IMG/VR virus record: IMGVR_UViG_3300011269_000004
Coordinates: 1 to 55,328 of that record
Length of the DNA: 55,328 bases
Direction: 5' to 3' (one strand)
Source of the DNA: a virus
Taxonomy: Duplodnaviria; Caudoviricetes
A program made the translations under genes and the position numbers. Below, piece by piece: positions 1,580 through 40,807 of the stretch. Numbering within the stretch: position 1 is the stretch's first letter; the number at the start of each line of letters is the position of its first letter. The notes beneath the pieces were generated by a model that saw nothing but the letters and a program-made list of their open reading frames with translations, searched no databases and was not told the origin of the DNA.

Positions 1580-1893
1580 ACCGCACGCCTATCAAATCGT
1601 CCAGCAACATCCTCTCAGCGGGATACGATGAGGGCACGCGCACGCTTGAGTTAGAATTCCCATCGCTCGCTGTCTACCAGTATTATCAGGTTCCTCCGTC
1701 AATTTACGCGGCCTTCCAAGCCGCAGGTTCCAAAGGGAAATTTCACGCGCTGTACTTGGCTGGCAAGTACGAGTACAAGTGCGTAGTCCAGCGACCGCAA
1801 GGAGAAAAGAGTCATGGCGAAAGCAAAACCGAAGTCCAGAGCAAGAGTGTCGCACGGCGCATCGCAGCACAAACCAAAAAGTCCATCTCCTAG
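1576..1893 (+). CDS. KTSC domain protein
   Basis: SSNILSAGYD..TRTLELEF....YQYYQVP..Y..F..AGSKGKF signature; GTG start overlapping previous stop. Confidence 0.9.
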   Translation: MNRTPIKSSSNILSAGYDEGTRTLELEFPSLAVYQYYQVPPSIYAAFQAAGSKGKFHALYLAGKYEYKCVVQRPQGEKSHGESKTEVQSKSVARRIAAQTKKSIS

Positions 1894-3211
1894 TCACGCG
1901 CTTATCAAGCCTGATGTGCTCTCGATTCCCGAAGCGATCGAGAAGGTTTTGATTCAAGGCGACTTGTCGCCGCTCCAGCCGCAAGAGCGTATCGATTATT
2001 ACAAGCGAGTCTGTTCCTCGCTTGGCTTGAACCCGCTCACGATGCCGTTCTCTTACATCCTGTTCCGCGAGAGCGATGGCGCGCCGGCCAAACTCTCGCT
2101 GTATGCCAACAAATCCTGTACGGAACAGTTGCGCAAGATTCACGGTGTCTCGGTTATCCCTCCGCTACGCCGGAGCCGCAATGAGGACATCGTGACGGTC
2201 GAGGCGGATGTGCGCGACCGTTTTGGACGTACCGACTCCGCAAGTGGAAGCGTGCCGCTATTCAGGTTCAAAGATGCCAAGCGATACGAACTTACCGGCC
2301 GCGACTTGTGCAACGCGGAGATGAAGTGCGAGACGAAAGCCAAGCGGCGCGCAACTCTCTCGATCTGCGGGTTGGCGTTCCTAGACGAGAGCGAACTGGA
2401 CACCATGCAGGTACTGGGTGGCGTTACGCCTGACGGCCGAATCTTTCGCTACGCTGGCGAGGAACCAGTACCCCCATCGCGCCAATTGAACGAGAACGCT
2501 GCGCATGGTCATCCAGAAGGCTCAGAACGCGCAAAGCAGGCCGACGCAGCCATAAAGAGGGTCGAGCCGGCAGATAAGGCTATAGAGGTCGAGAAAACCT
2601 CGCCAGCCGTCCCTAAAGCGCAACCTGTGCCACCCATGGAGTTCAAGGGTAATGTGGAGATTGACTGCACGGTGCCTTGGCCGATAGTCCGCGGCGACCT
2701 GCAGGACATAATCGAGAACCTACAGAAACTCTTTGGCGCAGCGCTCGAGTGGGGACAAGACTCATGGTGGCACATCGCTCCGAAGCAGGTAAGCGAATTT
2801 GTTGACTTGTTGAGCAAGAACGGATTCAAGGTGGATGTCAAGATCAAGACGCCATCCAAGAATTCTGCCGGTCAGAAGTCTGCCATGACATCTCCGCCGG
2901 CAGAAGCTCCTGTCGTCATCAGCGGGACCGTTGAACGCGTTGTACCTGACGTGAAATATGCAGTCATTACGCTTGCCACAAAGGACGGCAAGAAGCCGAG
3001 TTGGAAGTGTTTCGACAAGGACATCTCCGAGATTCTGCGGAAAAACCTTGGCAAGTTGGCCGAAGTCATCCTACAAAGCCGCGTCTCGAAAGGTGTCACG
3101 TACACAAATCTCATTGGCTTGAAGAACGTCGCTGGCCAAGAGTACGAAGATTTGAAAGTTCCAGTCATCGAGCGCAAGGACCAACAAGCTGGAGCCAAAA
3201 CGCTTTTCTGA
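1814..3211 (+). CDS. RecT/Red-beta-like single-strand annealing protein with C-terminal extension
   Basis: GDLSPL...YY..VC.SLGLNPLT.PF and MKCETKAKRRATLSICG motifs; Pro-rich linker; possible C-terminal OB-like domain. Confidence 0.75.
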   Translation: MAKAKPKSRARVSHGASQHKPKSPSPSHALIKPDVLSIPEAIEKVLIQGDLSPLQPQERIDYYKRVCSSLGLNPLTMPFSYILFRESDGAPAKLSLYANKSCTEQLRKIHGVSVIPPLRRSRNEDIVTVEADVRDRFGRTDSASGSVPLFRFKDAKRYELTGRDLCNAEMKCETKAKRRATLSICGLAFLDESELDTMQVLGGVTPDGRIFRYAGEEPVPPSRQLNENAAHGHPEGSERAKQADAAIKRVEPADKAIEVEKTSPAVPKAQPVPPMEFKGNVEIDCTVPWPIVRGDLQDIIENLQKLFGAALEWGQDSWWHIAPKQVSEFVDLLSKNGFKVDVKIKTPSKNSAGQKSAMTSPPAEAPVVISGTVERVVPDVKYAVITLATKDGKKPSWKCFDKDISEILRKNLGKLAEVILQSRVSKGVTYTNLIGLKNVAGQEYEDLKVPVIERKDQQAGAKTLF

Positions 3212-3376
3212 GGTAAGGCGCTGTAAGGCCCGCTGTTCTATGGTCAGGCAAGTTAGGTTGAGGTCGGCTGAGTTGCGGTGGGTCGGAGTCGGGTACGGTC
3301 TGTCTTGTTTAGGCTTGGTTAGTTCCGGCATGTTTGTGTTTGGCAGTCCAAGGCGTCCCATGGCGCGGCGAGGTTA
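3212..3376 (+). repeat. Array 1 of 5-nt GGY-NN units (33 units), putative guide-like ncRNA
   Basis: Unbroken 5-nt register; 33/33 units have a pyrimidine at position 3, 27/33 G at position 1, 17/33 exact GGY; fills the intergenic gap. Confidence 0.85.
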
Positions 3377-3397
3377 AATTTAGGGAGAAAAAACGAA

Positions 3398-4011
3398 ATG
3401 AGCAAAACAGCAACAGCACTTGCAGAAGTTTCAAACGACGGAGCCTTTGCCGTCGAATCAGCAATCCCCTATATCGTTGACGTTCAAGTGGAAGGGGCGG
3501 CGGCATTCCTCTTCCATCGCTGGAGCGTTGACGGTGTAGAAGCGAAGTCAAAGCTGCAAAGGGCAGTAAGGCCAAGAAGGAAGATGATTTGGAATCCTAT
3601 GTCTACCGCGACAAAGAAGGATTACTTTGTATTCCTACTGAGTATTTCCGCATGTCTCTCATCAACGCCGCGAAGTACAAGCAAGACCCCCGCTCTCCGC
3701 GTAAGTCTGCAATGGATTTGTTCAAAGCTGGAATCGTTGGCATGACAGATCTATGCTGTTTGGGAATCCGCGAATGGGAGTACGTTGATCGGCGCCGTGT
3801 GATGATTCAACGGAACGGCATCACTCGCCATCGGCCAGCCCTCTATGCAGGATGGAGAGTGGCAATGAGTTTCCAAGTTCTCATTCCAGAATACATTTCT
3901 CCGCAACTCTTGAACGAAACAATTCAGAGTGCAGGGCGATTGGTCGGCGTTGGAGATTTCCGTCCGACGTTTGGCAGGTTCAATGTCGTAAAGTTTTCCT
4001 TGGCAGGATAA
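3398..4011 (+). CDS. Solo RAMP/Cas7-like protein (~204 aa), split by a 1-nt frameshift near 3550
   Basis: Joins track ORFs 3398..3745 and 3589..4011; beta1 IVDVQVEGAAAFLFH, GLLCIPTEYFRMSL helix motif, C-terminal G-loop AGRLVGVGDFRPTFGRF. Confidence 0.75.
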
Positions 4012-4173
4012 GGCCCGCCAAGTTGCGGAGAGGTCGGTTGCGGCAGGGTTCGGTTAGGTTGGGCAAGGTCTGCAAAGGCAAAGCATGGTTTGGTTCGGTA
4101 GCGGTTGGACTCGCCTGTATTGGGCGGAGTTGGGTGTGGCATCGGCACGCTGAGAATACGGACTGCTAGTCCG
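4012..4173 (+). repeat. Array 2 of 5-nt GGY-NN units with 3' hairpin, putative guide-like ncRNA
   Basis: 18 in-register units 4012-4101 (12 exact GGY), about 10 more after +1 slips at 4102 and 4143; hairpin CGGACT-GCT-AGTCCG at 4159-4173. Confidence 0.85.
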
Positions 4174-4197
4174 AGGCGCGATGAGTTAAGGTGAGGT

Positions 4198-4455
4198 ATG
4201 GATTCATTATCTGAAGAGGAGAAGGCCACTTTTAAAAGAGCCACGGAGCGGCGCCGTGAGAACGGCATACGGCTCAAGCGTATTACGCTCTTGGCTCAAC
4301 CTTCGCAAGTAGAGGGCTTTACGGAGCTTTTCGATTCGTGGGTAATCCGCTGGGGCAAGAGCCGTGCACTGGACGAGCTTATACGCATTATGTCGATTGT
4401 CGAAGCGAGAATACGAGACAAGGAAAATGCACCGCCGCCCAACAAGAAAGGATGA
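4198..4455 (+). CDS. Hypothetical protein
   Basis: AAGGTGAGG RBS; helical protein-like sequence. Confidence 0.6.
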   Translation: MDSLSEEEKATFKRATERRRENGIRLKRITLLAQPSQVEGFTELFDSWVIRWGKSRALDELIRIMSIVEARIRDKENAPPPNKKG

Positions 4456-4780
4456 AGCAGCCACGAAAGCGGCCGGATTCAAGAGTCGCTATTCATATGT
4501 CTCGACGCGCGTTCATCCTGACTCAGATCCGCCGTACCAATGCGTTTATCTCGCTGGTCCTGACGATGTGTGGAAGCGACGGCGAGAGGTTTTTGAGCGC
4601 GACGGATTCAAGTGTGTACTGTGCGGGAGCACGCGCAACCTACAACTTCGGCATGGCGGAAAGACGAAAGTAGAGCGTTGCTGGTGCATGGAGAATCTTT
4701 CTTGCCGCTGTTCGGAGTGCCACATGATCAAGGAACACGGAAGATTCCCAAGGTGGTCCGCGAAGCGGAGCCAGCCATGA
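4427..4780 (+). CDS. HNH endonuclease-like protein
   Basis: W..RR.VFERDGFKCVLCG....L...H......NL...C..CH pattern. Confidence 0.75.
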   Translation: MHRRPTRKDEAATKAAGFKSRYSYVSTRVHPDSDPPYQCVYLAGPDDVWKRRREVFERDGFKCVLCGSTRNLQLRHGGKTKVERCWCMENLSCRCSECHMIKEHGRFPRWSAKRSQP

Positions 4781-5145
4781 ACGACAATTACCGTGAAACT
4801 CTGGAAGAACGAACAGCGCGAATCAATAGAGACGGGGCCAAGCTGAAAGCAGAGTTCCGCATTCGGCTTGAGCGACTGGAACACGAGCACGTACTAAAGT
4901 TGCTCGATTTGTTTCAAGAGTTCAAAAGACGGTCGGAACTGGTCGCCAACAATCACAGAGCCAAAAGCGACACTCTCGACATGCTGCACAATACGCTGAA
5001 TGTGAAGGCGCATGAGTTTTCTCCAGTTCACGCTGGAGAGAATGGGGTGGCTAGCACTTCTGGACAAAGTGCGGGGACCGGCCACCCCAACGTAATCTCG
5101 CGCAACCCGGAAGGAAACTATAAGCAGGCGGCAGAGAGGAAGTGA
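4777..5145 (+). CDS. Hypothetical coiled-coil protein
   Basis: ATGA and GTGA overlaps at both ends. Confidence 0.55.
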   Translation: MNDNYRETLEERTARINRDGAKLKAEFRIRLERLEHEHVLKLLDLFQEFKRRSELVANNHRAKSDTLDMLHNTLNVKAHEFSPVHAGENGVASTSGQSAGTGHPNVISRNPEGNYKQAAERK

Positions 5146-5489
5146 AGAAGATGAGCGAGCGCTTCAGCAACGAGTTGACCGACGCGGAGCTTGAGCGCCT
5201 GGCAGTGCTTTCCGAAGAGTTGGGAGAAGCGCAGCAATGCATCGGTAAGATTTTGAGGCACGGTTACAAATCGGGCAACCCGTTAGTCGATTACATCTCC
5301 AATCGCTTCCAGTTGGAGCGGGAAATTGGAGACATCCAAGCAGCTATCGGGATGTTGGTCCATGCTGGAGATGTTTCGCAGCCTGAAATTGAGCGCAGGA
5401 TTGGCAAAAAACTAGTGAGCATCCAACGTTGGCTCCATCATCAAGACGGGCTGCACGAGAGGTCTGCGCCGCAAAAGGAGGAGAAGTGA
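5142..5489 (+). CDS. MazG-like nucleotide pyrophosphohydrolase
   Basis: LSEELGEAQQ.IGK.LRHG and LEREIGDI (EExxE...ExxD) motifs. Confidence 0.8.
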   Translation: MKKMSERFSNELTDAELERLAVLSEELGEAQQCIGKILRHGYKSGNPLVDYISNRFQLEREIGDIQAAIGMLVHAGDVSQPEIERRIGKKLVSIQRWLHHQDGLHERSAPQKEEK

Positions 5490-5686
5490 GTGAGCGGGAC
5501 AAGAAGTTTATAGCTGAGGTACGCACGGCAGTAGCGAACTATATGCGCTCAGAGGGATGTTCATGCTGCCGCAACCAAGACAAGCACGATGAAAACAAGG
5601 CGCGACTGGCCTTCCTATTAGGCGTGTTCAAATACAAGGACGGCTCAGGATACGACTTCGGGAAATTTGAGAGTAAGCGCCCATGA
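5486..5686 (+). CDS. Hypothetical protein (GCSCC motif)
   Basis: AGGAGG RBS, GTGA overlap. Confidence 0.6.
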   Translation: MSERDKKFIAEVRTAVANYMRSEGCSCCRNQDKHDENKARLAFLLGVFKYKDGSGYDFGKFESKRP

Positions 5687-6855
5687 CCCCAACCGAGCAG
5701 CGAGCAGGCAAGAGCACCAGAACCGTAGCCGACGTTATCGCTGAATGGCGAGCGTCTGGCGTCAACAATGACGACGGGGAGTTAGCGAGCCGAATCAACT
5801 ATTTCATTGCGACGGAGACGAAAGGCTGGCGGGGAACCGGGGGCTTACAGGAGCGAGTGAAGCAATGGCGCGGCATTGCGCGGCGTGTCGATTCGCCGCT
5901 GTTCAATGCGTACAGCCAATGCGCCGACGAACTAGAGGCCGACATCGCGGAGATGGGGGTGGGCGTGAGCAACGTCGGCATTCTATCGCTGCTGAATGAG
6001 CATTGGCTGTTTGGAATAGAATGCAACCACGAAGCGAAAACAGACCAATCAATTTGTTCTTGTGGACTGAAATCACCGGAACGGGAGAGCGTAGGAGCGG
6101 CTGTTCAAGATTGGATTAAGCATTTGCGCACGCTGGCAGTCACCGCACCATCCTCCGAGCAGCAGCCCCACGTTGCCACGCTGGAAGAAATAAGTTGCGC
6201 AGATGCCGCTGAAATAGTACGCGAGGCCGCTGTCCCTGCATCGGTACCTTTGGACGCGGCGGCTGTACCCTTTTCGGTTGCTGTGAAATTAGACCAAATG
6301 GCGAGGCGTACGACGATTCTTGCTATGGAACTAGCTTACAAGTGCCTGAAATCCTTCACGATTCAATCTACGCATCCAGAAGCCAACCGTGTACGCGATA
6401 TTTGTTACACACTATTGGGCGTTAAGTACCACCGAGCAGAACCAGACGAAAGTGGAGAATGGATGCGTCTTGGTGTACCTGTGCCCGTCGAAACGCCATC
6501 GGTGGAGAGGGTGCCGCGCGCGGACATTCCGCGAGACAAAGCCCATGCCATTGTGCGGATGTGGCTTGAACTGGAGGGCGGAACTCCGCAAGAGCAGCGA
6601 GACAGGCTCGTGGAGGACATCGCGGATGCACTGCGGGCAGCCTCCGACCGCGAGCGCGTGCTGCGGGAGGTCGCAAGTAACGTCCCCGACCCAGAAGTTG
6701 GAGGCTTCTGCGATTCATGCGGTGGAAGGCTAGAGCTAATTGAGACACAGCGTCACGGCATGAAGGCATTTATTTGGCAGCACAAAGAAACATGCTGGTA
6801 TGGGAAATTACAGACGGCGCTCGCCCTCGATGCTGTGAAGGAACAACCTAAATGA
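5683..6855 (+). CDS. Hypothetical mosaic protein
   Basis: 390-aa ORF coupled at both ends; several Cys/His clusters. Confidence 0.65.
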   Translation: MTPTEQRAGKSTRTVADVIAEWRASGVNNDDGELASRINYFIATETKGWRGTGGLQERVKQWRGIARRVDSPLFNAYSQCADELEADIAEMGVGVSNVGILSLLNEHWLFGIECNHEAKTDQSICSCGLKSPERESVGAAVQDWIKHLRTLAVTAPSSEQQPHVATLEEISCADAAEIVREAAVPASVPLDAAAVPFSVAVKLDQMARRTTILAMELAYKCLKSFTIQSTHPEANRVRDICYTLLGVKYHRAEPDESGEWMRLGVPVPVETPSVERVPRADIPRDKAHAIVRMWLELEGGTPQEQRDRLVEDIADALRAASDRERVLREVASNVPDPEVGGFCDSCGGRLELIETQRHGMKAFIWQHKETCWYGKLQTALALDAVKEQPK

Positions 6856-37581: not shown

Positions 37582-38397
37582 TTATACTGGCGCTCCGAAT
37601 TCGTCTGGGTTGGCCGCGCCCAAGTCCGCGAGCATCTTGCTCAGTTCGGGATCGGCAGCCACGTCGTCGCCTAGCCCTTCCAGCCCCTTCTCGGCCACCA
37701 TGCTCTTTTCCGGTTTCTTCGGGCCAGTGGCGGAAGTCGGACGGCCGGATGCAGCCAAGCGCCCGCGTGTCTCGCCTTCCTTGATTCCCTGCTGCCGCGC
37801 TTCGGCCAGTCGTGTCTCGAAATCTTCATCACGGGTCAATTCGACGATGGCCTTCTCCACCGACGGGAAGCCGTACTCGTCGAGGAGTTTGTTGGTTGCG
37901 GCAAATTCACGCACCTTCTCAAAGGTCATGTCTTTGTGCTTGCTGCTCTTGGCCAGTTTCGGAGCCAAGCGGTCGAACTGCCCGCGCCAGCGATCCTGCG
38001 CCCAGATGGTTGCCATGCGCTCGGCGGCCGCGCCGAGTTTCGTCACCGTGTCTTTCAGTTCCTTTACCGTGGCATCCACGGTGCCGTAGCGTTTCTTCAC
38101 CGGCGCCCAGAACGGGTCGGTGTCCAATTCGTCATCGGTCGGAGGATTTTTTTCCTTGCCAACCTTGGCCAATTGTTCATCAAGTTGCTGCTTGAGCGCG
38201 GCGGCTTGCGTGGCGAGATTGGTTACTTCGGTGAACTTGTCCTCGGTGGCCTTCATGCGATCGGCAAGTTCTTGCTGCTTCTTGCGCGACATGCCGCGCA
38301 AGTCTGCGAGCGTACCTTTTTCTCCATTCACAACGATTTCAATGCCATCCGCGAAAGTCTTGTCGTCGTCAAGGATTTTCATCAAATCAAGAGCCAT
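37582..38397 (-). CDS. Capsid scaffolding protein (putative)
   Basis: V.VNGE..TL.DL motif, charged helical, upstream of MCP. Confidence 0.65.
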   Translation of the reverse strand: MALDLMKILDDDKTFADGIEIVVNGEKGTLADLRGMSRKKQQELADRMKATEDKFTEVTNLATQAAALKQQLDEQLAKVGKEKNPPTDDELDTDPFWAPVKKRYGTVDATVKELKDTVTKLGAAAERMATIWAQDRWRGQFDRLAPKLAKSSKHKDMTFEKVREFAATNKLLDEYGFPSVEKAIVELTRDEDFETRLAEARQQGIKEGETRGRLAASGRPTSATGPKKPEKSMVAEKGLEGLGDDVAADPELSKMLADLGAANPDEFGAPV

Positions 38398-40340: not shown

Positions 40341-40807
40341 GAATTGGCTCTCCCGGCTGGAATCGAACCAACATCAGCCTCCGTCGAGGCCCGCGACCCC
40401 TCAGTTAGAACTGAGTGCTCTGCCACTGAGCTACGGGAGAATGTCGTTTCGTTGCAGGCGCATTTCCACGGCCTTAAAACTTTCAGCACACGCGACTGAT
40501 TCTTTTCAATCGGGTAGGTAGCAATCGCTGTTAAATGTTCTCCGTTAATAATCCGGTCTGTGTCCCGGTACTCGACGAACATCACACATTCGTTCGTCAG
40601 GTCTTGACATAATTTTTCAAGTTCCAGCTTTCCCGCAACGGAAAGAATAATGATGTCTTTGTCCTGCACATCCACTTGCGGCAAGAGGCGCTGGAGTTTT
40701 GCTACAACGTGAACAGCGTGAGAAGCGATTCGTCCTGAAGTCATGCACAGTTTGCGGTCGGACAAGTCAAGATTACGCAACACAACGACATAAATACGTT
40801 CAGTCAT
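40337..40807 (-). CDS. Peptidyl-tRNA hydrolase Pth2-like protein
   Basis: IYVVV...L....MT.GRIASHAVH, IIILSV....L..L, E..D....LTAIA..P motifs. Confidence 0.7.
   Translation of the reverse strand: MTERIYVVVLRNLDLSDRKLCMTSGRIASHAVHVVAKLQRLLPQVDVQDKDIIILSVAGKLELEKLCQDLTNECVMFVEYRDTDRIINGEHLTAIATYPIEKNQSRVLKVLRPWKCACNETTFSRSSVAEHSVLTEGSRASTEADVGSIPAGRANS
40345..40440 (-). tRNA. Atypical tRNA-like element (6-nt anticodon loop containing CUA; enlarged variable region)
   Basis: TCTCCCG/CGGGAGA acceptor stem, G-CCA end, GCTC-AGTGGCA-GAGC D arm, GTTGG-TTCGATT-CCAGC T arm. Confidence 0.7.

Follow-up and report, generated by a model that had tools for sequence, protein, structure and literature searches.

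Introduction

VIPR systems, CRISPR-like DNA silencers published in 2026, combine a minimal RAMP protein, Vipr, which has an RRM core, a glycine-rich loop and a thumb, with vrRNAs of 9-16 YNNGG repeats and a tail. Such repeats, four or more in tandem, lie on the strand of vipr in the intergenic DNA that flanks it, and their NN pairs read double-stranded DNA with every third base skipped (2026 VIPR papers, e.g. 10.64898/2026.04.26.720920). Seven types (I-VII) have been published, whose architectures differ (10.64898/2026.04.26.720920), and the reported targets are satellites, prophage regulators, other VIPR systems and viruses (10.64898/2026.04.26.720920, 10.64898/2026.04.26.720927, 10.64898/2026.10.15.759431, 10.64898/2026.10.21.760802). 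The type II system of Escherichia phage SUSP1 comprises Vipr, Vap1 and four vrRNAs (10.64898/2026.04.26.720920, 10.64898/2026.04.26.720927), and in SUSP1 Vipr the residues H17, R138, D177, W178 and R179 hold G1, G2 and Y3 of the repeat (10.64898/2026.04.26.720927). Other arrangements include 'staggered' arrays, in which vrRNAs abut without a spacer and whose legend speaks of '1 nt overlapping positions' (10.64898/2026.04.26.720920, fig. S18), and the solo vrRNAs of satellites and VIPR-null phages, which use the Vipr of another element (10.64898/2026.10.15.759431). Here we analyse a tract of G-rich pentamers, array 2 (positions 4012-4197, + strand), in IMG/VR record IMGVR_UViG_3300011269_000004, a complete 55,328-bp virus (Caudoviricetes) with terminal repeats from soil metagenomes; the whole 55,328-nt stretch is called the window. 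We have little doubt that array 2 is a VIPR array, its locus being a new member of the known VIPR kind, and one of its guides is predicted to read the first codons of ThsB-type TIR immunity genes.

A pentamer array beside a vipr gene

Array 2 begins directly 3' of the stop codon TAA (4009-4011) of a RAMP gene, as an earlier note on this sequence had it. The NN string quoted there for 4012-4101 was reproduced exactly and corresponds to run a, 18 GGYNN pentamers in a single register that start at the stop codon. The single extra C residues at 4102 and at 4143, each of which moves the register by +1, and the inverted repeat CGGACT-GCT-AGTCCG at 4159-4173 were verified as well. Between the two slips lies run b, with eight weaker units (4103-4142), and the second slip is followed by the degenerate units of run c/d (4144-4197). 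A Viterbi parse places a third +1 slip near 4154-4159, with which the periodic tract extends through the hairpin to the ATG at 4198, so that array 2 amounts to 18 in-register units and about 19 weaker ones. Its conserved end, GGTGA GGTAT GG, provides the next gene with its Shine-Dalgarno sequence and ATG. The full GGY is found in about half of the window's units only. In a period-5 scan of the window for G in two adjacent phases, array 2 reaches 22/24 (60-nt scan windows), and the only + strand places with at least 15/20 G's are array 2 and the upstream array 1 (about 3212-3375). Apart from these two, the threshold of the scan is reached in the window only by a borderline period-5 C signal (15/20) at 37656-37714, in the sense of the - strand.

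The periodicity was also evaluated with a slip-tolerant GGY log-odds score against 500 dinucleotide shuffles per segment. The score of 4012-4101 is 34.7, compared with -7.2 +/- 4.4 in the shuffles, and that of 4103-4197 is 9.3 (shuffles -9.9 +/- 3.8); neither was reached by any of the 500 shuffles. When the latter segment is divided, the score of 4144-4197 is again reached by none and that of 4103-4142 by 4/500. Tandem Repeats Finder and the repeat parse returned the 5-nt period and its multiples only, and no CRISPR-type direct repeats (about 20-40 nt) with spacers of similar length were found. Rfam gave no relevant match up to E 10 in 3000-4600 (one chance snoRNA match) and none in this interval to the hammerhead ribozymes that separate vrRNAs in hammerhead-interspersed VIPR arrays, no + strand promoter or terminator was found between the genes, and the folding of the whole tract is no better than that of shuffles (z +0.59 for array 2, z +1.24 for array 1).

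The gene that ends at 4011 is vipr (3398-4011, + strand, about 204 amino acids), a Cas7-like RAMP by both profile and fold, in agreement with the earlier note. Its product matches phrog_4652, a family of unassigned function (E 3e-14), and 6780 proteins, which are without exception unnamed and lack Pfam domains, were retrieved at E<=0.001 with the window Vipr fragment as query. Against the PDB, a profile of 71 homologues (profile A4) yielded a single match, 36pp_D 'SUSP1 Vipr protein', at E 1.6e-11 over 171 of 207 profile positions. The equivalents of SUSP1 H17, R138-P139, D177 and R179 are invariant in the 71 homologues, W178 corresponds to a nearly invariant F, and the GGY-holding residues are all present in the window's two reading frames (FLFHRW, TRHRP, GDFRP). 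The fold was predicted with AlphaFold2 for the intact homologue of locus L001, 77% identical over the best tblastn segment, and not for the window's broken copy (pLDDT 89.1, pTM 0.81). With this model Foldseek returned 112 matches at E<=1e-3, and among the matches listed (about 40 of the 112) all are Csm3/Cas7-type CRISPR effector chains. A tblastn search of the window protein against 50,697 phage records did not reach SUSP1 (four records match, one at 63% and the rest below 30%), and the window Vipr therefore represents a distant clade.

Homologous loci were fetched from IMG/VR (80) and GTDB (14), together with 80 further metagenome loci. Period-5 G tracts on the strand of the gene occur at 93 of the 94 loci, and the 80 metagenome loci are alike in this respect. 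In alignments with L001 and L002 the invariant columns are mostly G's and the NN positions are variable; no non-repeat 9-mer is common to the arrays, and the nearest relatives carry a stem-loop after the upstream array only. The view that the tract is a guide-RNA array beside a RAMP gene, to be read through its NN dinucleotides, thus finds support. The longest array by far was seen in L093, a contig binned with a Bathyarchaeia metagenome-assembled genome, where pentamer arrays occupy most of the ~3 kb downstream of vipr (3467-6165). The downstream arrays of L001, L100 and L101 contain a conserved T/A-rich element (GGTTT TTAAT AAAAG AGTTT CCCCT GGTCG GCTCC GGCAA), which is absent from the window and is likely to be a vrRNA boundary or an internal promoter of that clade. 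An RNA bound by a TRAP-like ring protein, a G-quadruplex tract and a nucleocapsid-like packaging signal had been considered as candidates and were dropped after the VIPR literature and the Vipr profile and fold matches.

How does the locus compare with the described systems? As in SUSP1, a phage-borne minimal RAMP gene with conserved GG- and Y-binding residues is flanked on both sides by same-strand GGY/NN pentamer tracts, a target is found by the 1-nt-skip rule only, with the skipped bases at codon wobble positions, and a self-target is absent. Unlike SUSP1, the window has a distant Vipr that is linked to the known one through a profile and has F for W178. Its units are looser (many are G-Y-Y or G-N-Y), its tract extends from a stop codon into the ribosome-binding site of the gene that follows, it has neither a definable invariant pseudoknotted tail nor a Vap1 homologue, and its predicted target is an immunity gene instead of a satellite or prophage regulator. 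The relatives have uninterrupted runs of as many as about 100 units, in which no tail is obvious between guides; such runs resemble the staggered arrays as these are described in the legend. With the CRISPR RNA and Cas7 backbone of class 1 CRISPR systems (Csm3, type VII Cas7) the locus shares the fold (TM about 0.5-0.56, probability 1.00) and the principle that each protomer covers an RNA segment of fixed length and that bases are flipped at regular intervals, but the period is 5 and not 6 nt, the guide is noncontiguous and phage-encoded, and long direct repeats and adaptation genes are missing. Like the solo vrRNAs, arrays without a working vipr of their own may use a Vipr from another element; unlike the published account of solo vrRNAs, vipr is present in the window, broken by just one base, and nothing points to a partner Vipr.

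A predicted guide against ThsB-type TIR genes

A gapped target search, which the earlier note had called for, produced a convincing target for units 8-16 of array 2 (4047-4091, + strand; NN pattern TC TA TG AA CT AA AA AT TT), and did so under the 1-nt-skip rule only. Among 88 matches in GTDB, 16 fall in ThsB-like genes, all of them at codons 4-12 (KIFFSFHYE) of the sequence M-A-R-K-I-F-F-S-F-H-Y-E-R-D; the remaining 72 look random. At least eight of the 16 target records are titled Acidobacteriota or Terriglobia, including Angelobacter and Acidiferrum (lineage checked), and four belong to Saccharibacteria, Patescibacteria or Taylorbacteria. The two preceding units, 6-7 (4037-4046), half-match, which gives 20/22 over units 6-16. 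The target genes are ThsB_TIR genes (Pfam PF08937, E 1e-25 to 1e-28; PADLOC ThsB1, E 1e-63 to 1e-70), and the target in L232 is the first gene of a row encoding ThsB-TIR, an E2-like protein, ThsB-TIR and TIR_2, beside an ATPase.

A sample chosen independently of the pattern gave the same answer. PF08937 was searched for in the class to which one target genome belongs (201 genomes); 17 genomes matched, and 25 loci remained after the locus of one of them, the unpublished G109, had been left out. With a 1-nt skip, the guide matches 18, 17, 16 and 16 of 18 positions at four distinct ThsB starts; with a 0-, 2- or 3-nt skip, the maximum in the same 25 loci is 13/18. Only one of 500 shuffled guides reaches 16 on these loci and none reaches 17. 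When 8- and 9-unit windows of all guides in the window were slid over the ThsB neighbourhoods, only units 6-17 scored; single 16-17/18 matches occur there at the rate expected by chance. With full-length guides and skips of 0-3 nt, nothing above shuffled guides was found in the phage's own genome and the 94 vipr loci, hence no self-target, and the phage has no ThsB gene. Units 6-14 were tried on IMG/VR as well; they gave seven matches, five of which, near-identical AT-rich contigs with a 48-amino-acid open reading frame, were judged to be chance.

Four relatives of the window carry variants of the same guide. The segment 4046-4081 is shared with the arrays of L097, L098 and L101 (blastn-short and an exact 9-unit search), and L001 has the same NN series (local scoring). 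Read with a 1-nt skip, the relatives' nine units TC CG TC TA TG AA CT AA AA match five sites in IMG/VR, all five at an equivalent position in homologous, ThsB-like genes (Pfam PF08937, E 1e-25 to 1e-28; PADLOC ThsB1, E 1e-66 to 1e-70); the sites differ from one another at the skipped bases. In GTDB, 117 of 126 sites of this 9-unit version lie in ThsB-like genes among the matches listed. Of the skip controls run with the relatives' units in IMG/VR, the 2-nt skip gave four matches (two independent, AT-rich and unrelated) and the 0-nt skip none. The unit that adjoins the core is AT, GC or CT, depending on the relative: the AT of L001 and the GC of L097 match the Ile or Ala codon that follows E-R-D in some targets, and the CT of L101, for which no match was seen, would stand for Ser (AGY) by our decoding. 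A second guide in L100 (L100:2318-2362) matches IHNIKDQDRNT; this motif lies exactly 291 nt deeper in the same Acidobacteriota genes, and 11 sites score 16/18 or better, two of them perfect.

Several observations weigh against this interpretation. All 18 units taken as one guide match 22-24/36 positions (at most 67%), below the published cut-off of 80%. Only nine of the 18 in-register units match fully, and the cut-off is passed only with a guide about 11 units long. Many arrays of relatives end with a motif to which the last two matching units (..AT GGTTT) are similar; these two units may be scaffold rather than guide, which would leave a core of seven units. Units 8-16 have eight matches in IMG/VR and none in a ThsB gene, and the target searches with array 1 and with 4103-4197 yielded nothing. 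No invariant 3' tail of the kind that characterised type II vrRNAs have could be defined, the five runs listed with the locus comprise no RNA run, their contigs being DNA, and, as set out below, the window's vipr gene is not intact and its frame break recurs. On balance, the agreement of the sequences moderately favours thsB as the true natural target of the guide in units 8-16.

Proposed mechanism

We consider it very probable that 4012-4197 is the downstream vrRNA array of a phage-borne VIPR system, and one of its guides is predicted to be aimed at thsB. Array 2 would most likely be transcribed together with vipr, from the + strand. By analogy with SUSP1, where this has been demonstrated (as described in the VIPR papers cited above), Vipr protomers would bind the RNA as a filament, one per pentamer, with the GGY buried and the NN exposed; the exposed NN pairs would then read double-stranded DNA with every third base skipped, and binding would block transcription. 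The first 18 units are the well-built part of the array, and units 8-16 among them, with half-matches in units 6-7, spell the antisense of the first codons, M-A-R-[K-I-F-F-S-F-H-Y-E]-R-D, of ThsB-type TIR genes. In soil Acidobacteriota these genes stand first in putative defence operons that are rich in TIR genes. The predicted role of the guide is to shut down a Thoeris-like immunity gene carried by the host or by a prophage within it. The rest of the array, 4102-4197, is degenerate repeat, in which a short tail (4108-4131) and guides that are decayed or very short may be present.

What would the system be used for in this group of phages? We tentatively propose that the lineage formed by the window and L001, L097, L098, L100 and L101 employs VIPR as an RNA-guided anti-defence weapon. 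Its conserved guides would turn off the leading gene of a ThsB-type TIR (Thoeris-like) immunity operon in the Acidobacteriota host or in resident prophages, and would track the allelic variants of the target. In the same tentative scheme the guide is predicted to bind at the first codons and, in L100, also at a second conserved motif 97 codons further on. An immunity gene as target would go beyond the published ones: Thoeris, ThsB and TIR are not mentioned in the main texts of the VIPR papers, and their supplementary target tables may bear on this point.

Phage proteins that counteract Thoeris are known, namely Tad1 and Tad2, which sequester the signal made by the TIR protein. The end would be the same, the neutralisation of TIR-based Thoeris immunity, but the proposed route is the RNA-guided transcriptional silencing of the TIR gene and not the sequestration of a signal by a protein. 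Viewed as an annotation, the locus is one more VIPR system of a large family, useful and unsurprising after the 2026 papers. If phage guides truly silence such a TIR gene of immunity, the uses of VIPR would include attack on the defences of hosts or prophages, in addition to conflict between mobile elements; this would mirror CRISPR and add a new class to the mechanisms directed against Thoeris. The guide-target pair is concrete and testable in a VIPR clade far from the characterised type II, and it gives a hint as to the phylum in which this uncultured soil phage may have its host.

Alternative explanations

In the earlier note it was suggested that the single-base slips may separate guides and that the hairpin at 4159-4173 may act as a 3' processing or capping handle. 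This model is in keeping with the structured invariant tail that closes type II vrRNAs (10.64898/2026.04.26.720920) and with the clade-specific hairpin- or terminator-like tails found between repeat runs at distant loci such as L024 and L079; perfect hairpins are also mildly enriched over 256 arrays (72, compared with 49 +/- 7.7 in shuffles). For the hairpin of the window the evidence points the other way. When the homologous 3' tails were aligned, as the note had suggested, the hairpin proved not to be conserved, as far as relatives with 76-84% protein identity can tell, and non-conservation is among the grounds that the note gave for refutation. L098, L101, L001 and L002, the closest loci fetched, all lack the hairpin, and in L098 and L101 the array continues without interruption to its conserved end, GGTGA GGTAT/GGTTT, which comprises the Shine-Dalgarno sequence and the ATG of the downstream gene. 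Only two perfect hairpins of at least 6 bp occur in the 17 arrays of the nine closest loci, one of them being the window's own, and a perfect stem of at least 6 bp with a 3-8-nt loop arises in 10.4% of 2000 dinucleotide shuffles of 4012-4200. The element (-7.6 kcal/mol) takes no part in the minimum-energy fold of the tract and lies within the periodic tract, about 25 nt 5' of the conserved end of the array, so that periodic units go on through and past it. It is thus probably not a functional handle and is most likely incidental. An imperfect hairpin at 4108-4131 (9 bp, one bulge, -11.3 kcal/mol) follows the first slip, and in L001 and L098 the homologous guide is followed by two more units and then a stem-loop; by analogy, 4108-4131 could be the tail of the preceding guide, which we regard as rather unlikely. 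As to the slips, the part of the claim that fits is that 4102 falls 10 nt after the last target-matching unit and that the median run between slips or array ends in the relatives, 14.8 units, is within the published 9-16. The general rule finds less support: in 254 distinct arrays (174 loci) there are 281 slips in 9545 units, and 83 of 535 runs exceed 30 units without a slip. Slips are therefore too rare, and long slip-free runs too many, for them to be the general guide delimiter, and we lean against this role; the pieces delimited after 4102 would, moreover, be merely 3-8 units long. Taken as a whole, the model of slips and handle is quite improbable.

Another reading is that of a relic: the VIPR system would have died recently, its arrays would be in decay, and the thsB match would be inherited from a functional ancestor. 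It is prompted by the frame of vipr, which is broken by one missing base between 3553 and 3554, at AAG|CT where homologues read AAG GCT, with the N-terminal 52 codons in the frame of 3398 and the rest in that of 3400. The base is missing relative to all homologues, including the intact P0001 (97% identical), and the break is reproducible: contigs of four runs from three studies (Logan) show it without any indel; three of these runs may be the source of the record, and the fourth covers the site at a depth of 3.7. The loose units, the degenerate state of 4103-4197 and the difference between the guides of the window and of its relatives at two units adjoining the core fit decay too. Yet the units of the nearest intact relatives, L001, L016 and L009, are similarly loose, and the window version of the guide is not merely degraded, being a perfect 9-unit match to a different ThsB subgroup and lying two codons closer to the start codon. 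At the site of the break, A-AAG|CT (3551-3556), a -1 slip on AAG would give the conserved protein exactly; this is a trivial consequence of the deletion and no evidence of programmed frameshifting. Furthermore, solo vrRNAs served by the Vipr of another element have been published (10.64898/2026.10.15.759431). The broken vipr could be a pseudogene or be expressed by low-level frameshifting, and VIPR in this phage may be recently inactivated, or dependent on rare -1 slippage or on Vipr in trans. The break lowers the chance that the system is active in this phage, not that the locus is a VIPR locus, and we consider an array of mere relics an unlikely explanation. GGNNN repeats can in principle give two-tetrad G-quadruplexes, and the G-rich period-5 tract might accordingly hold no guide at all, being either such a two-layer structure or a platform for a ring- or filament-forming protein without a sequence-specific target. 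This idea is hardly credible next to a gene that is Vipr by sequence profile and fold and in arrays whose G's are fixed and whose NN positions vary, and a purely structural role leaves the 1-nt-skip-specific match to one gene family unexplained. The preferred reading remains that of a downstream vrRNA array with a guide predicted to be directed at thsB.

Upstream array, neighbouring genes and other features

Array 1, the upstream vrRNA array (3212-3375, + strand), comprises about 32 GGYNN units in one register by the Viterbi parse, and its period-5 score of 46.1 was reached by none of 500 shuffles (-16.2 +/- 5.4). Array 2 had been said not to be a duplicate of it. This is right in so far as neither is a copy of the other, but some stretches are common to both, namely TAAGGCCCGC at the start and a GAGGTCGG..TTGCGG stretch. 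The former opens the two window arrays in the same register (3224-3233, 4009-4018) and is rare at the array starts of other loci. The motif AGTCCRAGG is likewise present in both, and it occurs in two other arrays and, as coding sequence, in many vipr genes. The end of array 1 has a small hairpin (3353-3366) that differs from the stem-loop of the relatives. In L097-L102 and L001 a conserved stem-loop occupies the last ~45 nt 5' of the vipr start, between the upstream array and the ribosome-binding site of vipr, and shows apparent compensating changes (CGGCAA/TTGCCG versus CGGCGA/TCGCCG).

Directly after array 2 lies an 85-amino-acid gene (4198-4455, + strand), conserved in L098 (82%) and L101 (40%); in L098 it accompanies a Vipr that is 81% identical to that of the window. 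This gene is a candidate accessory (vap-like) gene. It has no Pfam or PHROG match, and a resemblance to ribbon-helix-helix proteins (atlas score 0.92 to RHH_1 clusters) provides a lead only. An open reading frame of 138 amino acids (4364-4780, + strand) is weakly HNH-endonuclease-like (phrog_1271, E 2.1e-5; no Pfam match) and syntenic in L098, L101 and L003. No neighbour genes of the window were found to be shared with the other 94 loci. The 465-amino-acid gene upstream of array 1 (1814-3211), for which Pfam and PHROG gave no match, has syntenic counterparts in L100 and L101 and a partial match in L161. Elsewhere in the window, ARAGORN reports a tRNA-like gene with a four-base anticodon (tcta) at 40345-40440 on the - strand, and at positions 1-60, at the terminal repeat, the record begins within a run of GCTGCTCCG-like 9-mers that form an Ala-Pro-rich coding repeat.

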